This document shows, piece by piece, positions 9,646 through 17,042 of a stretch of 17,042 nt of DNA. The position numbers were made by a program, and so were the translations under genes. The notes below the pieces were generated by a model. It was given only the letters and a program-made list of their open reading frames with translations. It had not been told where the DNA came from and ran no database searches. The stretch lies in IMG/VR virus record IMGVR_UViG_2617270978_000019. The stretch is one strand, 5' to 3'. The DNA comes from a virus (taxonomy: Duplodnaviria > Heunggongvirae > Uroviricota > Caudoviricetes). Each line of letters starts with the position of its first letter. Position 1 is the stretch's first letter.

Positions 9646-9729
9646 AGTCCAAATGTACAACCAAGGTTTTATCCCATCAAACGAAAATGGTTGTTGACTA
9701 AAAACAACCATAGTTTTAATCTTGATTCA
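9646..9729. promoter_or_regulatory. OR region with divergent PRM and PR and palindromic operator
   Basis: PR: TTGACT (9694-9699), 17 bp, TAATCT (9717-9722); PRM on minus: TTGATG (plus 9675-9680), 17 bp, TACATT (plus 9652-9657), 6 nt before repressor ATG; palindrome ATGGTTGTT-n7-AACAACCAT (9687-9711). Confidence 0.7.
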
Positions 9730-11605: not shown

Positions 11606-12303
11606 AAAACATCGCCGCACAGATGGTTAACTTTGACTGTGAGCAGATGCGCCGGATCGCCAACAACATGCCGGAACAGTACGACGAAAAGCCACAGGTA
11701 CAGCAGGTAGCGCAGATCATCAACGGTGTGTTCAGCCAGTTACTGGCAACTTTCCCGGCGAGCCTGGCTAACCGTGACCAGAATGAACTGAACGAAATCC
11801 GCCGCCAGTGGGTTCTGGCTTTCCGGGAAAACGGGATCACCACAATGGAACAGGTTAACGCTGGAATGCGCGTAGCCCGTCGGCAGAATCGACCATTCCT
11901 GCCATCACCCGGGCAGTTTGTCGCCTGGTGCCGGGAAGAAGCATCTGTTAACGCCGGGCTGCCAAACGTCAGCGAGCTGGTTGATATGGTTTACGAGTAT
12001 TGCCGGAAGCGTGGCCTGTATCCGGATGCAGAGTCTTATCCGTGGAAATCGAACGCGCATTACTGGTTGGTTACCAACTTGTACCAGAACATGCGGGCCA
12101 ATGCGCTGACTGACGCGGAATTACGGCGCAAGGCTGCCGATGAACTGACCTGTATGACAGCGCGAATTAACCGTGGTGAGACGATACCTGAACCAGTAAA
12201 ACAACTTCCTGTTATGGGCGGTAGACCTCTAAATCGTGCACAGGCTCTGGCGAAGATCGCAGAAATCAAAGCTAAGTTTGGGCTGAAAGGAGCAAGGGTA
12301 TGA
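11602..12303 (+). CDS. P: Replication protein P (DnaB helicase loader)
   Basis: 233-aa ORF MKNIAAQMVNFDCEQMRRIANNMPEQYDEKPQVQQVAQIINGVF, essentially lambda P. Confidence 0.96.
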   Translation: MKNIAAQMVNFDCEQMRRIANNMPEQYDEKPQVQQVAQIINGVFSQLLATFPASLANRDQNELNEIRRQWVLAFRENGITTMEQVNAGMRVARRQNRPFLPSPGQFVAWCREEASVNAGLPNVSELVDMVYEYCRKRGLYPDAESYPWKSNAHYWLVTNLYQNMRANALTDAELRRKAADELTCMTARINRGETIPEPVKQLPVMGGRPLNRAQALAKIAEIKAKFGLKGARV

Positions 12304-12602
12304 CGGGCAAAGAGGCAATTATTCATTACCTGGGGACTCATAAGAAATTCTGTGCGCAGGACGTTGCCGCGGTAACAGGCGCAACGGTAACCAGCATAAA
12401 TCAGGCTGCGGCTAAAATGGCGCGGGCAGGAATCCTGGTCGTTGATGGTAAGGTCTGGCGAACGGTGTATTATCGGTTCGCTACCAGAGAAGAATGGGAA
12501 GGAAAGGTGAGCACGAATTTGATTTTTAAGGAGTGTCGCCAGAGTGCCGCGATGAAACGGGTATTGAGGGTATATAAAAGAACATCAATGGGTACACAAT
12601 GA
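12300..12602 (+). CDS. ren: Ren (Rex exclusion protein), variant C-terminus
   Basis: 100-aa ORF MTGKEAIIHYLGTH...VTSINQAAAKMARAG matches lambda Ren; the last residues appear to diverge, consistent with a recombination junction at its 3-prime end. Confidence 0.85.
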   Translation: MTGKEAIIHYLGTHKKFCAQDVAAVTGATVTSINQAAAKMARAGILVVDGKVWRTVYYRFATREEWEGKVSTNLIFKECRQSAAMKRVLRVYKRTSMGTQ

Positions 12603-12619
12603 TGAAACAGGTGAGTTGA

Positions 12620-12654
12620 GTTCAAACTGTAGTACAATTCTCTCCAGTTTGAAC
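12620..12654. repeat. Perfect 10-bp inverted repeat GTTCAAACTG-n15-CAGTTTGAAC between ren and emrE
   Basis: Read directly; sits 18 bp after ren stop and 16 bp before emrE ATG; no T-run follows. Confidence 0.8.
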
Positions 12655-12669
12655 AGGAAAGAATATGCT

Positions 12670-13002
12670 ATGAATCCTTATATTTATCTTGGTGGTGCAA
12701 TACTTGCAGAGGTCATTGGTACAACCTTAATGAAGTTTTCAGAAGGTTTTACACGGTTATGGCCATCTGTTGGTACAATTATTTGTTATTGTGCATCATT
12801 CTGGTTATTAGCTCAGACGCTGGCTTATATTCCTACAGGGATTGCTTATGCTATCTGGTCAGGAGTCGGTATTGTCCTGATTAGCTTACTATCATGGGGA
12901 TTTTTCGGCCAACGGTTGGACCTGCCAGCCATTATAGGCATGATGTTGATTTGTGCCGGTGTGTTGGTTATTAATTTATTGTCACGAAGCACACCACATT
13001 AA
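12670..13002 (+). CDS. emrE: SMR-family multidrug efflux transporter EmrE
   Basis: 110-aa product MNPYIYLGGAILAEVIGTTLMKFSEGFTRLWPSVGT, four TM helices, matches E. coli EmrE. Confidence 0.95.
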   Translation: MNPYIYLGGAILAEVIGTTLMKFSEGFTRLWPSVGTIICYCASFWLLAQTLAYIPTGIAYAIWSGVGIVLISLLSWGFFGQRLDLPAIIGMMLICAGVLVINLLSRSTPH

Positions 13003-13257
13003 AAATAATTTGTTTTTAAACGACTAAAATATGGAGGTTCGTATATTTATATGGGCCTCGTTTTATGCTTTTTGTTAATGTCTTTAGTTTTTATTCATTC
13101 TTTTGTGCTTTCAGGATTATGGTGTAAGAAAATTGCAATACGATTATTGTTGTATATTTAAGATAATGTGACCTTAATTGTCTTTTTAAATAAAAATTAA
13201 ACAAAAATCATATCTCACCACTAAGGTTTATAAAAGCATACTTTAGCAGGTGTCACC

Positions 13258-14784
13258 ATGAAAAAAGCCATAGCATATATGCGATTTTCATCACCAGGTC
13301 AGATGTCTGGTGATTCATTAAACCGCCAGAGAAGGCTTATTACTGAATGGCTAAAGGTAAATAGTGATTATTACCTTGATACCGTAACGTATGAAGATTT
13401 GGGGTTAAGCGCATTCAATGGAAAGCATGCACAATCAGGAGCTTTTTCGGAATTTTTAGATGCTATAGAACATGGTTATATATTGCCAGGGACTACATTG
13501 TTAGTTGAAAGTCTGGACAGACTTTCAAGAGAAAAAGTCGGTGAAGCGATTGAGCGTCTGAAATTGATTTTGAATCACGGTATTGATGTTATAACTCTTT
13601 GCGATAATACAGTCTATAATATTGACTCATTGAATGAGCCATATTCATTAATAAAAGCCATACTTATAGCACAAAGGGCAAATGAAGAAAGCGAGATAAA
13701 GTCAAGTCGGGTTAAATTATCATGGAAGAAAAAACGGCAGGATGCACTGGAGTCAGGCACGATTATGACGGCGTCTTGTCCGAGATGGCTCTCATTGGAT
13801 GACAAAAGAACGGCTTTTGTTCCAGACCCCGACAGGGTGAAAACTATTGAGCTAATTTTTAAACTCAGGATGGAAAGGCGCTCATTGAATGCAATAGCCA
13901 AGTATTTAAATGATCATGCTGTAAAGAATTTCTCAGGAAAAGAAAGTGCATGGGGACCTTCTGTAATTGAAAAATTATTAGCGAATAAAGCTCTGATAGG
14001 TATATGCGTACCTTCATATCGTGCAAGAGGTAAAGGAATAAGTGAAATCGCTGGCTATTATCCCAGAGTCATATCAGATGATTTGTTTTACGCTGTGCAG
14101 GAAATTCGGTTGGCACCTTTTGGTATTAGCAATAGTAGCAAAAATCCTATGTTGATAAATCTACTTCGAACAGTTATGAAGTGCGAGGCTTGTGGTAATA
14201 CCATGATTGTTCATGCGGTATCTGGAAGTTTGCATGGCTATTATGTTTGTCCGATGAGAAGACTGCATCGATGTGACAGGCCATCAATAAAGAGAGATTT
14301 GGTTGATTATAATATCATTAATGAGTTGCTTTTTAATTGTAGTAAAATCCAACCAGTTGAAAACAAGAAAGATGCTAATGAAACTTTAGAGTTGAAAATT
14401 ATTGAGCTCCAGATGAAAATTAATAATTTAATTGCTGCATTATCTGTTGCGCCTGAAGTTACCGCTATAGCAGAAAAAATCAGAGTATTAGATAAGGAAT
14501 TACGAAGGGCTTCTGTATCATTAAAAACTTTGAAGAGTAAAGCGGTGAGTTCACTTGGTGATTTTCATGCTATTGACTTAACCAGTAAAAATGGGCGAGA
14601 GCTATGTCGTACACTTGCCTATAAAACATTCGAAAAAATCATAATCAATACAGATAATAAAACCTGTGATATCTATTTTATGAATGGCATTGTTTTTAAA
14701 CACTATCCTTTAATGAAAACAATATCCGCCCAGCAGGCGATAAGTACTCTCAAATATATGGTTGATGGTGAGGTTTATTTTTGA
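13258..14784 (+). CDS. ybcK: Large serine recombinase (YbcK-type)
   Basis: 508-aa ORF; N-terminal resolvase domain with catalytic-serine context AYMRFSSPGQ, central recombinase domain, CEACGN...CPMRRLHRC zinc ribbon, C-terminal coiled coil; low GC. Confidence 0.9.
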   Translation: MKKAIAYMRFSSPGQMSGDSLNRQRRLITEWLKVNSDYYLDTVTYEDLGLSAFNGKHAQSGAFSEFLDAIEHGYILPGTTLLVESLDRLSREKVGEAIERLKLILNHGIDVITLCDNTVYNIDSLNEPYSLIKAILIAQRANEESEIKSSRVKLSWKKKRQDALESGTIMTASCPRWLSLDDKRTAFVPDPDRVKTIELIFKLRMERRSLNAIAKYLNDHAVKNFSGKESAWGPSVIEKLLANKALIGICVPSYRARGKGISEIAGYYPRVISDDLFYAVQEIRLAPFGISNSSKNPMLINLLRTVMKCEACGNTMIVHAVSGSLHGYYVCPMRRLHRCDRPSIKRDLVDYNIINELLFNCSKIQPVENKKDANETLELKIIELQMKINNLIAALSVAPEVTAIAEKIRVLDKELRRASVSLKTLKSKAVSSLGDFHAIDLTSKNGRELCRTLAYKTFEKIIINTDNKTCDIYFMNGIVFKHYPLMKTISAQQAISTLKYMVDGEVYF

Positions 14785-14895
14785 GTAATAATCACTTTTT
14801 CAACCGTGCTATAGTAAGAAAGTTAGGTAAGTACAATAAAATTATCTATCCTGAACGAAGCGTCCTGAGCTATGGTTTTACTATAGGGACTGCCA

Positions 14896-15135
14896 ATGGA
14901 TGCTGGCGTTCTCGTTCTAGCAGTTCAACAATACCCAATCACAAAACAATTCACTGATAACAAACTTTGTGCACGTGCTTGGTTATGGCGAGCAGGTGAT
15001 GTGATGTTAACTGCCTGCCAGAACGTTACTCCACTACTTCAGGTTGCGGAGCACCGCGAAGCCGGCCGCTTTACTTCTATCGAGCATGAATATCCCCAGA
15101 TACTCAACAGAGCGCGAGCAATCCTCGCCAGATAA
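14896..15135 (+). CDS. Hypothetical small protein (possibly a gene remnant)
   Basis: 79-aa ORF with weak AGGGA ribosome-binding site in a GC-richer patch; no recognised family. Confidence 0.25.
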   Translation: MDAGVLVLAVQQYPITKQFTDNKLCARAWLWRAGDVMLTACQNVTPLLQVAEHREAGRFTSIEHEYPQILNRARAILAR

Positions 15136-15239
15136 ACGGCACATGTAAAATTCCAGCCGTGGCTGGATGATAAGTGGAGTCGAGTGTTACCATATTTCCG
15201 TCAGAATCTGTTCCAATAAAGTCACTAGTTAGAAATACT

Positions 15240-15277
15240 GCCAGCATTCTACGATGACGGAAGTGCTGGCATTTTTT
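15240..15277 (+). terminator. Intrinsic terminator (plus strand)
   Basis: Hairpin GCCAGCA...TGCTGGC followed by ATTTTTT. Confidence 0.6.
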
Positions 15278-15453
15278 GGGTAATATGCGAGTCCATTTCA
15301 TAAAATACGGGTGCTGTAAACTGGACGATATAATCTAAAATATACCATTACCAGTAGCCTTCAAATCGCTATGTGCCGATACGGATAAAATTATATTGAT
15401 TGTGCACATACCTTATTGGATATTACTGAGGGGTATTTATATAAGGTGTAACG

Positions 15454-15963
15454 ATGATGTGGAACTTTGACAGTGCCGACTTAAGTGCAATAGCAGCAGG
15501 TATTTCTGCGTTTGGCACATTAGCCGCAGCGGGGTCGGCGCTTGCAAGTTGGTACACGTCAAAAAAAGCGCTGCAGCTACAAAATAGAGTTTACCTTTAT
15601 GAGTCTTTAAAGGCTTGCGCTGAGAGAGCCAATTCATCAGCTAAAGATAAGCGCGGATCTGAATGGAGCGTTAATGATGCAGCGGATATCATCAGGTGCC
15701 TAGTACGGGCGATGGAGATCATCAAGCAGGATAGCCAGCAGAAAGAAGGTAATCAGGCATTAATGTTGAAACAGTACTTTGTTAATCTGCTAATAATGGA
15801 ACTGTACGAGGAAGTTCATAACGGTGATGCGGCTGATTCTGTTTTTAAAAGTACGGAACCTACACAAGTACTTGATAACTTATGGAGCAAATGGCAGGAG
15901 GCTATAGCTTTTTTTGATATTTGGAATTACCCAGTTGCGACTGAGGAAGACTTGGCAGACTAA
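15454..15963 (+). CDS. Hypothetical membrane-anchored protein (single N-terminal TM helix, helical soluble domain)
   Basis: 169-aa ORF; AAGGTG ribosome-binding site; hydrophobic segment LSAIAAGISAFGTLAAAGSALASWY; bounded by the upstream terminator and AT-rich promoter-like sequence; no family recognised. Confidence 0.6.
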   Translation: MMWNFDSADLSAIAAGISAFGTLAAAGSALASWYTSKKALQLQNRVYLYESLKACAERANSSAKDKRGSEWSVNDAADIIRCLVRAMEIIKQDSQQKEGNQALMLKQYFVNLLIMELYEEVHNGDAADSVFKSTEPTQVLDNLWSKWQEAIAFFDIWNYPVATEEDLAD

Positions 15964-16157
15964 TTTTCAGCACATTTGATTTCCAATAATCAACCAGCCA
16001 TAATCATGCCATTGGAGCCTGAACAACTCCGGTGACTTCTGCGCTAAACGGGGACGTTTATGCGCACATACAAACCAACCTATCTTCTCCATTCACAGAT
16101 GCAGAAATGCACCTGCGATATATTGTATCCAGCGTTTGACCTCTGCGGAGGTGAAGC

Positions 16158-16613
16158 GTGAATCTCCCACAAGATGGCATCAAATTACATCGCGGTAACT
16201 TCACCGCTATCGGTCGGCAGATCCAGCCTTATCTGGAGGAGGGCAAATGCTTTCGCATGGTGCTTAAACCGTGGCGTGAGAAACGCAGTCTTTCCCAGAA
16301 TGCACTCAGCCACATGTGGTACAGCGAAATCAGTGAATACCTCATCAGCAGGGGTAAAACGTTCGCTACTCCAGCTTGGGCAAAAGATGCTCTCAAACAC
16401 ACATATCTCGGTTATGAAACCAAAGACCTGGTTGATGTCGTAACCGGTGATATCACCACTATCCAGTCGTTACGCCATACCTCCGATCTTGATACCGGAG
16501 AGATGTATGTCTTCCTGTGTAAGGTTGAAGCCTGGGCGGTGAATATTGGCTGCCACCTGACTATTCCGCAGAGCTGCGAGTTCCAGCTGCTCCGCGACAA
16601 GCAGGAGGCGTAA
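16158..16613 (+). CDS. ninB: NinB-family recombination protein (YbcN-like)
   Basis: 151-aa ORF, GTG start with GGAGG Shine-Dalgarno; [20 protein letters not shown] aligns with the lambda NinB RSLDQN region. Confidence 0.7.
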
Positions 16614-16622
16614 TGGCTACAC

Positions 16623-17042
16623 TGAACCGCCCCGGGTTTCCTGGAGAGTGTTTTATCTGTGAATTCAGGCTGCCAGATCATCGTTTCCGATGGAAGCATA
16701 ATAAGCTTTTTCTGCTTCTGCCGGGGGGATATGGCCCAGCCTTTCCAGCAATCGTCGATTGTTATACCAGTCCACCCACGTGAGTGTGGCCAGCTCCACT
16801 TCTGTCCGGTTTTTCCAGCTCTTACGGTGTATTACCTCCGCTTTGTAAAGACCATTGATGCTCTCCGCCATCGCGTTGTCATACGAGTCGCCTGTACTTC
16901 CTGTTGATGCCAGTAATCCGGCTTCCTTAAGCCGCTGTGTGTAGGCCAGCGATACATACTGAGAACCTTTATCACTGTGATGGACCGTGCCGGACGGTCG
17001 ACGGGCCCATAACGCCTGCTCCAGTGCATCCAGCACGAATGT
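16623..17042 (-). mobile_element. IS3-family insertion sequence, terminal portion (IS629-like end); continues beyond window
   Basis: Terminal sequence TGAACCGCCCCGGGTTTCCTGGAGAGTG begins 9 bp after the ninB stop; encodes the C-terminal part of a DDE transposase. Confidence 0.75.
16665..17042 (-). CDS. IS3-family transposase OrfB, C-terminal part (5-prime end outside window)
   Basis: Translation contains the integrase-core region HSDKGSQY...DNAMAESINGLYKAEVI with the conserved catalytic E. Confidence 0.8.
   Translation of the reverse strand, partial: TFVLDALEQALWARRPSGTVHHSDKGSQYVSLAYTQRLKEAGLLASTGSTGDSYDNAMAESINGLYKAEVIHRKSWKNRTEVELATLTWVDWYNNRRLLERLGHIPPAEAEKAYYASIGNDDLAA

Follow-up and report, generated by a model that had tools for sequence, protein, structure and literature searches.

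A PHROG 1779 gene in the cargo slot before the nin genes of lambda-like prophages: a predicted membrane-anchored protein and candidate exclusion factor

For inner-membrane proteins of lambda-like prophages, superinfection exclusion or abortive infection is the best-precedented role, as illustrated by SieA/SieB, Rex and gp15 of HK97. The latter is a "moron" product of a lambda-like phage which excludes superinfecting phages, and Sie2009-type proteins are thought to block injection from the periplasmic side. Here we describe a gene from a Caudoviricetes genome (IMG/VR record IMGVR_UViG_2617270978_000019), of which a stretch of 17,042 nucleotides, referred to as the window, was analysed. A first-pass annotation, made from the DNA sequence alone, had put the gene forward as coding for an orphan membrane-anchored protein and as a candidate single-gene exclusion or defence factor. 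In view of these precedents we favour this role tentatively: the gene may possibly encode a single-gene superinfection-exclusion or abortive-infection factor which would act at the inner membrane, on its cytoplasmic side. The features on which the following description is based are compiled in Table 1.

Table 1. Positions of the gene, its predicted parts and the surrounding signals in the window.
Feature	Position	Strand	Details and basis
Palindromic operator in the cI-cro intergenic region	9690-9715	n/a	ATGGTTGTTGACTAAAAACAACCAT; negative control for the promoter of the gene
Rha/antirepressor-like remnant (P22AR C-terminal domain), pseudogene	14896-15219	+	Internal stop; RefSeq, E. coli 55989
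Intrinsic-terminator-like hairpin after the Rha remnant	15239-15278	+	Stem TGCCAGCA/TGCTGGCA at 15239-15272, then T6 at 15273-15278
Putative sigma-70-type promoter	15396-15424	+	-35 TTGATT at 15396-15401, 17-bp spacer, -10 GATATT at 15419-15424
Inverted repeat CCTTA/TGAGG around the -10, followed by a U-rich run	15411-15431	+	Appearance of a tR2-type hairpin
Shine-Dalgarno sequence AAGGTG	15443-15448	+	Sequence; 8 nt 5' of the ATG at 15457
PHROG 1779 protein, coding sequence	15457-15963	+	168 aa (169 aa if the start is at 15454)
Codons of the predicted membrane anchor, residues 11-33	15484-15552	+	Hydropathy, column conservation, flanking charges
Codons of residues 34-169: stalk helix, acidic helical bundle, C-terminal tail	15553-15960	+	AlphaFold2, alignments, pI

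The open reading frame annotated at 15454-15963 on the plus strand (169 aa) is present and encodes a real gene. It is listed in RefSeq as WP_000990013.1 ("hypothetical protein"), it has homologues down to about 25% identity, and dN/dS values of 0.08-0.16, calculated for pairs with unsaturated dS, reveal strong purifying selection. At its 5' end two ATG codons lie side by side (15454-15459). Three groups of close relatives (L052, L056 and L078) have ATA in place of the first of them, and for some strains the product annotated in RefSeq comprises 168 aa; the likely start is accordingly the second ATG, at 15457. The designation of the protein as an orphan turned out to be wrong because it matches PHROG 1779 over its full length (E = 1.2e-102, residues 1-169 aligned to profile positions 1-169), a family which is annotated without function and whose profile is also matched by all 23 divergent relatives tested.

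To what extent the family reaches beyond E. coli became apparent from searches at different depth. A word-indexed search of 5.8 billion proteins yielded 15 clusters and an exhaustive HMMER search through 1.84 billion representatives 22, while two profile rounds led to 42 and 36 clusters, the second of them adding a subfamily of 159-160 aa with about 25% identity. All named sources belong to the Enterobacteriaceae (Escherichia, Citrobacter, Enterobacter, Klebsiella, Scandinavium, Dryocola and Phytobacter). Copies with at least 95% identity are present in about 180 of 5,426 complete E. coli genomes (about 3%, from varied sources), and a divergent relative is found in 26 further ones. Within a collection of 50,697 phage records there are only two carriers, both of them temperate and none virulent. 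Members of PHROG 1779 are restricted to temperate elements of these gut bacteria (phages, phage-plasmids and a satellite-like island), where they are well conserved. A variant of the protein with 78-80% identity (P0002) occurs on contigs from IMG/VR and from metagenomes (L060 and L081); it exhibits a scrambled N-terminus and a premature stop caused by a frameshift, lacks the promoter hairpin described below and is probably a decaying copy.

Several distant members reside in other surroundings. In P1-like phage-plasmids of about 93-98 kb the family member is located directly upstream of the addiction module phd-doc. The E. coli plasmid pS51_2 (about 98 kb; L087, 5920-7130) codes for a member of 154 aa with about 35% identity, which is preceded by Ead/Ea22 and DUF551 genes, followed by phd-doc and equipped with an extended -10-like TGaTACAAT upstream. 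On the chromosome of Dryocola sp. BD613 (L008) a distant member is part of a small integrative island which bears an integrase gene as well as Ogr/Delta and AlpA-like genes. About 2 kb from this member, a pair of genes encoding an RVT_1 reverse transcriptase and a SLATT_5 protein, resembling a retron or DRT, is present (L008, 5031-6931). In L009, a further distant member has recombination and methylase genes as its neighbours in an early-left operon close to int.

The statement that the protein belongs to no recognised family holds for Pfam, NCBIfam, PADLOC and the PDB. With the window protein as query, no family of Pfam-A or NCBIfam scored above its curated threshold and none of PADLOC-DB 2.0 appeared at E <= 10; the 23 relatives gave inconsistent weak hits in the former and merely scattered single hits (E >= 0.002) in the latter. 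A profile search against PDB sequences returned only values of E > 1, and fold searches with the AlphaFold2 models led to no significant or informative match. A resemblance to HEPN/MntA-HepT proteins suggested by Foldseek (E ~1, TM ~0.3) was dismissed as the Rx4-6H motif is not conserved. Homology to Sie2009 and to HK97 gp15 was likewise rejected in view of hhalign probabilities of 0.1% and 0.5%, respectively. From these profile and fold searches no function can be assigned to the protein by homology. No mention of the gene, of PHROG 1779 or of the carrier phages was found in the literature searched.

Over 15200-16100 the window shows 100% identity with the chromosomes of both E. coli 55989 and the O104:H4 outbreak strains. 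In E. coli 55989 this region belongs to a lambda-like (DLP12-type) prophage integrated beside ybhC. The left part of this prophage shows the order int-xis ... exo-bet-gam-kil, cI, cro, a YdaT-like gene, O, P, ren, emrE and ybcK, the latter encoding a serine recombinase. It is followed by the Rha remnant, the gene under study, orf33, ybcN, ninE and ybcO and, in the right part, by rusA (frameshifted), ylcG, quuD, ompC, the lysis genes and terminase (frameshifted). The gene is intact although Rha, rusA and terminase of the same prophage are pseudogenes. In E. coli, Rha is its usual upstream neighbour. The intact version, as present in phage PhiR26_1, comprises 202 aa with Bro-N and P22_AR_C domains. 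The copy in the window contains an internal stop and was apparently shortened by the emrE-ybcK block.

This neighbourhood raises the question of whether the protein interacts with, or regulates, the Rha/antirepressor-like protein encoded upstream, for instance by holding it at the membrane and thereby tuning prophage induction. Such a role is very improbable, although in the E. coli lineage the gene always follows Rha directly and shares an intergenic region with it (56 of 77 classified loci). Among 56 near-identical loci, 33 possess a complete Rha gene, while the other 23 have a shortened one or lack it. Yet the gene under study is intact in 55 of the 56 copies fetched irrespective of the state of Rha, as it is in the window. 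In addition, other genera harbour DUF551/PHROG 60, theta-like or other genes instead of Rha at the upstream position, and a terminator together with a separate putative promoter lies between Rha and the gene.

The gene lies in a cargo slot of variable content which extends from the replication/ren genes to the first nin gene, in agreement with the prophage cargo position initially assigned to it. The stretch from ren to the first nin gene (12300-15219 in the window) has interchangeable contents in sister phages (L002, L017, L018 and L089-L092). It may harbour emrE-ybcK-ybcL-ybcM, the gene of PD-lambda-1 (DUF4041) on the opposite strand together with Rha and the 169-aa gene, an acyltransferase gene plus that of an outer-membrane lipoprotein, or an unrelated reverse-strand gene of 347 codons. 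Residents such as emrE, ybcL/ybcM or the acyltransferase and lipoprotein pair would be in line with a lysogenic-conversion membrane protein which, apart from any conflict between phages, contributes to the envelope, to stress tolerance or to colonisation, and so would an own promoter and a frequency of about 3% among complete E. coli genomes of varied sources. The protein, however, displays no enzymatic or transporter feature, and the gene keeps a phage-specific position on strictly temperate phage backbones, which renders a conversion function of this kind unlikely.

Despite the variable contents of the slot, the address of the gene within it is fixed. In all lambda-like backgrounds examined, and down to about 25% identity, it is co-directional with the early-right operon and represents the last gene, or in three loci the last but one, ahead of the first nin gene, which is NinB, YbcN or DUF1367. 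The upstream neighbour, in contrast, differs. It is Rha in the E. coli lineage, whereas three loci have a gene related to that of DNA polymerase III theta and others a modular DUF551/PHROG 60 gene; early accessory genes such as Ead, Ea22, DUF551 and PHROG 60 precede the gene. The constancy of this address even at 25% identity indicates that the family is an old resident of the slot rather than a freely hopping cassette. As to base composition, the gene has a GC content of 37-46% compared to 46-57% of its flanks in the seven backgrounds compared from outside E. coli. Within the E. coli lineage the 2 kb on the upstream side are even lower in GC (38-41%), and it is solely the downstream flank which exceeds the gene.

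Upstream of the gene, the plus-strand terminator noticed at first reading is indeed present. Its hairpin contains an 8-bp core stem (MFE -20.3 kcal/mol, z = -1.8 upon RNA folding) and was missed by a consensus scan because its loop exceeds 8 nt. The 173 bp between this terminator and the gene (15281-15453) have a GC content of 35%, so that the description of an AT-rich upstream region is correct. Its promoter-like character is not borne out by a promoter scan of this interval, in which nothing rose above threshold (best match 8 of 12 positions), but is supported by comparison with relatives. The members whose upstream regions were compared fall into two classes. In class A, to which the promoter listed in Table 1 corresponds, the arrangement TTGnnn, 17 bp, GATATT is kept in all nine distinct upstream sequences while spacers and flanks diverge; in the window this pattern is found once. 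An AT-rich stretch is located 5' of the -35 element, and the transcript is predicted to start near 15431. Class-B relatives possess a perfect TATAAT as -10. Taken together, this suggests that a conserved sigma-70 promoter drives the gene. No sequence resembling a CI operator was found at this promoter upon comparison with the OR operator of the prophage (ATGGTTGTT..AACAACCAT), and as the sequence is unlike that operator, control by CI was rejected. The conserved promoter without a CI operator and a GC content below that of the flanks suggest transcription in the lysogen, independent of pR.

A peculiarity of this promoter is its overlap with a hairpin. In most class-A phages a GC-rich inverted repeat, e.g. 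CCCCTGC/GCAGGGG or ACCCTGA/TCAGGGT, brackets the -10 element. Among ten sequences folded, nine of them from distinct class-A phages, six form stable hairpins with z of -2 to -4.4; in three others, all class-A phages, the hairpin around the -10 is absent, and the fold of L004 was mis-anchored. Covariation is modest, as 67.5% of the cells are paired and 15 of 500 shuffles reach a value as high. For these two reasons a strict claim of RNA covariation was downgraded. In class B, TATAAT abuts CCCCTC(N8)GAGGGG-TTTTT-ATG, with the ribosome-binding site inside the 3' arm; in class A the U-run is imperfect. In lambda (tR2) and P22 ("L2") a GC-rich hairpin with a U-run ends the replication segment just before the ribosome-binding site of ninB. 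The hairpin upstream of the gene has this form, most clearly in class B, and differs in that it overlaps a promoter, with the -10 being situated in the loop (class A) or abutting the 5' arm (class B). Judged from its sequence, it may be the equivalent of tR2 and would form only on read-through transcripts arriving from upstream. Transcripts of the gene itself would escape it because the promoter is placed such that they start inside or after the hairpin and lack the 5' arm. P22 ninA was discarded as a relative of the gene since it is an ORF of 26 aa containing the terminator. The motif TTGGATATTAC was rejected as a repeated element of the window as its occurrence is not beyond chance, and no Rfam family was detected in 14700-16700.

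Measured against what is typical of a moron, an autonomously transcribed cargo unit of a phage genome, the gene differs in base composition and in presence or absence among similar phages (in the E. coli lineage as regards composition with respect to the downstream flank only) and has, as judged from comparison of relatives, an own promoter, for which the theta-linked subfamily leaves no room. Directly 3' of the stop codon no hairpin with a U-run is present in the window or in other nin-located forms, where the stop is followed by the nin leader and not by a terminator. The distant members L008 and L009 do possess a terminator after the gene.

The nin leader deserves a description of its own. 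This element preceding orf33/ybcN (15976-16065 in the window) is conserved in many lambda-like phages with or without the 169-aa gene. It starts with a promoter-like TTGATT, 17 bp, CATAAT (15976-16004) and continues with two hairpins. The first (16010-16034) displays an invariant 9-nt loop, CCUGAACAA, on stems which are wholly different between phages; the second (16041-16065) exposes the ribosome-binding site of orf33, GGGGAC, in its loop and contains the orf33 ATG (16060) in its 3' arm. RNAalifold assigns 17 pairs, seven of them with compensatory changes. The leader has no Rfam match and no U-run, and the record of phage 82 labels part of it as "possible regulator-binding site". Possibly, this leader serves to control translation or antitermination in the nin operon.

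The theta-linked loci bear directly on the main rival of an exclusion function. In L008 (8756-9519) as well as in L096 and L097 (7730-8483 in both), members with about 27% identity directly follow a gene for a DNA polymerase III theta-like protein (P1 Hot-type), separated from it by a gap of 13 nt or overlapping it by 4 nt. This spacing implies co-transcription and perhaps a functional link between the two genes. According to this rival, the gene would be a non-essential "pre-ninB" early lytic accessory gene of the pR operon which does not protect the lysogen; during phage growth its product would target the host, e.g. through inhibition of one of its defence or membrane proteins, or would serve as a membrane tether linked to replication or recombination. 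Besides the coupling to the theta-like gene in three loci, the invariable strand and position before NinB, YbcN or DUF1367 and the early accessory genes upstream argue for it, as do the presence of the L009 copy in an early-left operon and the missing terminator downstream of the nin-located forms. We consider it less than likely, though only slightly below the exclusion reading. Against it, the conserved sigma-70 promoter devoid of a CI operator suggests expression independent of pR, the GC content lies below that of the flanks, the family is absent from the virulent phages of the 50,697-record collection, and the gene stays intact in defective prophages. Moreover, the acidic domain of the protein speaks against a DNA-binding tether such as p16.7 of phi29. 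The fixed position in the early operon and the coupling to the theta-like gene are equally compatible with a defence cassette and with an accessory gene of the early lytic phase.

The protein itself starts with a segment which had been described as an N-terminal transmembrane helix. The existence of an uncharged hydrophobic helix (residues ~11-33), rich in Ala, Ser and Gly, is supported, while its capacity to span the membrane is marginal: the best 19-residue Kyte-Doolittle mean amounts to 1.59, compared to 1.5-2.5 across the family. It is therefore to be asked whether this segment is an alanine-rich oligomerisation helix of a soluble protein rather than a membrane anchor. Apart from the low hydropathy, a summed Hessa-scale value of +2.7 kcal/mol for the window protein, a helix surface consisting mostly of Ala, Ser and Gly and a low AlphaFold2 confidence in this region would agree with a soluble protein. 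Yet charged residues are absent from about 22 consecutive positions in all 23 divergent members, relatives reach Kyte-Doolittle means of 2.0-2.5, and throughout the family Trp and acidic or neutral residues precede the helix and a cluster of Lys/Arg follows it. A soluble protein is improbable in the light of these features. The acidic to neutral N-terminal flank and the Lys/Arg cluster after the helix predict an N-out/C-in orientation, with which the flanking charges are compatible in 23 of 23 members, the hydropathy being borderline. A signal peptide was rejected on account of the acidic n-region and because, at the would-be AxA site, the residue at -1 differs between members and is frequently a bulky one. 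Accordingly modelled, the product is probably a single-pass inner-membrane protein with about ten residues outside and an acidic helical domain in the cytoplasm.

Within the helix, Ser18, Ala19, Gly21, Ala24-Ala26, Ala28/Ala29 and Ser32 are invariant or nearly so and line up on one face with a periodicity of 100-105 degrees, whereas the bulky residues 20, 23, 27 and 30 vary. As indicated by column conservation, the helix is better conserved than much of the soluble domain, which suggests helix-helix packing rather than a passive anchor. The AlphaFold2 models (pLDDT 72 and 74; core ~85-94; low confidence at the N-terminal helix) are all-helical, so that the helical soluble domain claimed at the outset is confirmed at the level of prediction. 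They show a long helix (residues 8-63), a bundle of five to six helices extending to residue 154 and a short terminal helix. The soluble domain is acidic (pI ~4.7 here; ~4.5-5.4 for the C-terminal domain of most members) and ends in a tail, ATEEDLAD in the window protein, whose ATDEDLAD type is conserved in the family. Conserved residues belong mainly to the hydrophobic core, complemented by Gln43, Glu50, Asn60 and Lys106; no catalytic motif is apparent among them in the family alignment.

How would such a protein exclude a phage? If the exclusion reading holds, the gene would be transcribed in the lysogen independently of pR; the small-residue helix would self-associate or bind a partner in the membrane, and the acidic domain would hold or sense a component of the incoming phage. 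The response would then consist in blocked establishment of the incoming genome or in a membrane compromised by the helix. Expression from the prophage is indicated by the CI-independent promoter, the atypical composition, the presence of a validated defence gene among the cargo, the restriction to temperate elements and the retention in a decaying prophage. Several further observations point towards exclusion: purifying selection and intactness in 55 of 56 copies whatever the state of Rha, the neighbouring phd-doc on P1-like plasmids, the reverse transcriptase and SLATT pair near the Dryocola member, the conserved small-residue face of the helix and the N-out/C-in charge pattern. On the other side of the balance, there is neither similarity to PADLOC models, Sie2009 or HK97 gp15 nor an informative fold match; no catalytic motif is present and the helix is marginal for insertion. 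Likewise against exclusion stand the orientation shared with the early-right operon, the place in it which is kept even by members with about 25% identity, the theta-like gene which in one subfamily lies 13 nt before the gene or overlaps it and leaves no space for a promoter, and the nin-located forms without a terminator after the gene. The original proposal of an exclusion or defence candidate is partly supported. Its circumstantial case gains, beyond what the sequence alone could show, from the conserved promoter, a GC content below that of the flanks, the variable slot, intactness in a decaying prophage and exclusive occurrence in temperate elements; homology to PADLOC families, Sie2009 or HK97 gp15 does not back it, and neither does the bulk of the protein, which is predicted to be cytoplasmic, acidic and devoid of catalytic motifs.

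A more elaborate version, which as a whole we regard as unlikely, would make PHROG 1779 a new single-gene prophage immunity factor and a bitopic protein of the inner membrane. Its acidic domain and ATDEDLAD tail would capture or sense a phage protein, its helix would oligomerise to abort the infection or to block genome establishment, and its promoter would be built into a tR2-type terminator, whereby the gene would be insulated from the early transcription of its own phage. If an exclusion function proves true, about 3% of the complete genomes of E. coli, those of the O104:H4 outbreak lineage among them, carry a compact immunity gene of this kind, and the pre-ninB gene of lambda-like phages is a place to look for similar genes. 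Even without such a function, the promoter within a terminator would be a neat example of cargo uncoupled from early phage transcription. The gene represents a well-defined candidate for a phage-challenge screen and not a discovery.

With holins, pinholins and SAR-anchored lysis proteins the protein has solely the helix rich in small residues in common. Its gene is not located in a lysis cassette beside an endolysin gene, the lysis genes (essD, rrrD and Rz) lying about 4 kb downstream beyond Q and ompC. PD-lambda-1 (DUF4041) uses the same ren-to-nin slot in the same phages (PhiR26_1 and E. coli 118UI), about 1.6 kb upstream of the gene, but is an unrelated protein of 500 aa encoded on the opposite strand; its presence indicates that the slot accepts defence cargo, and nothing more. 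In common with HK97 gp15, we find a small single accessory gene of a lambda-like phage with own transcription signals and a predicted membrane helix. HK97 gp15, however, comprises 62 aa compared to 168 aa, is encoded among tail genes and has no large cytoplasmic domain. Sie2009 of a lactococcal prophage (Tuc2009 orf2) is similar in its length of about 170 aa, its one N-terminal membrane helix and its prophage origin. Unlike the protein described here, it carries a Lys-rich N-terminus before the helix, and its gene is situated between repressor and integrase. Since this charge pattern is opposite, the bulk of Sie2009 is predicted to be outside the cell, in contrast to the predicted cytoplasmic location of the PHROG 1779 domain. 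The domain predicted here to be cytoplasmic, acidic and non-enzymatic, in turn, suggests that a protein of the phage or the host is bound or sequestered at the membrane, and not that injection is blocked from the periplasmic side.
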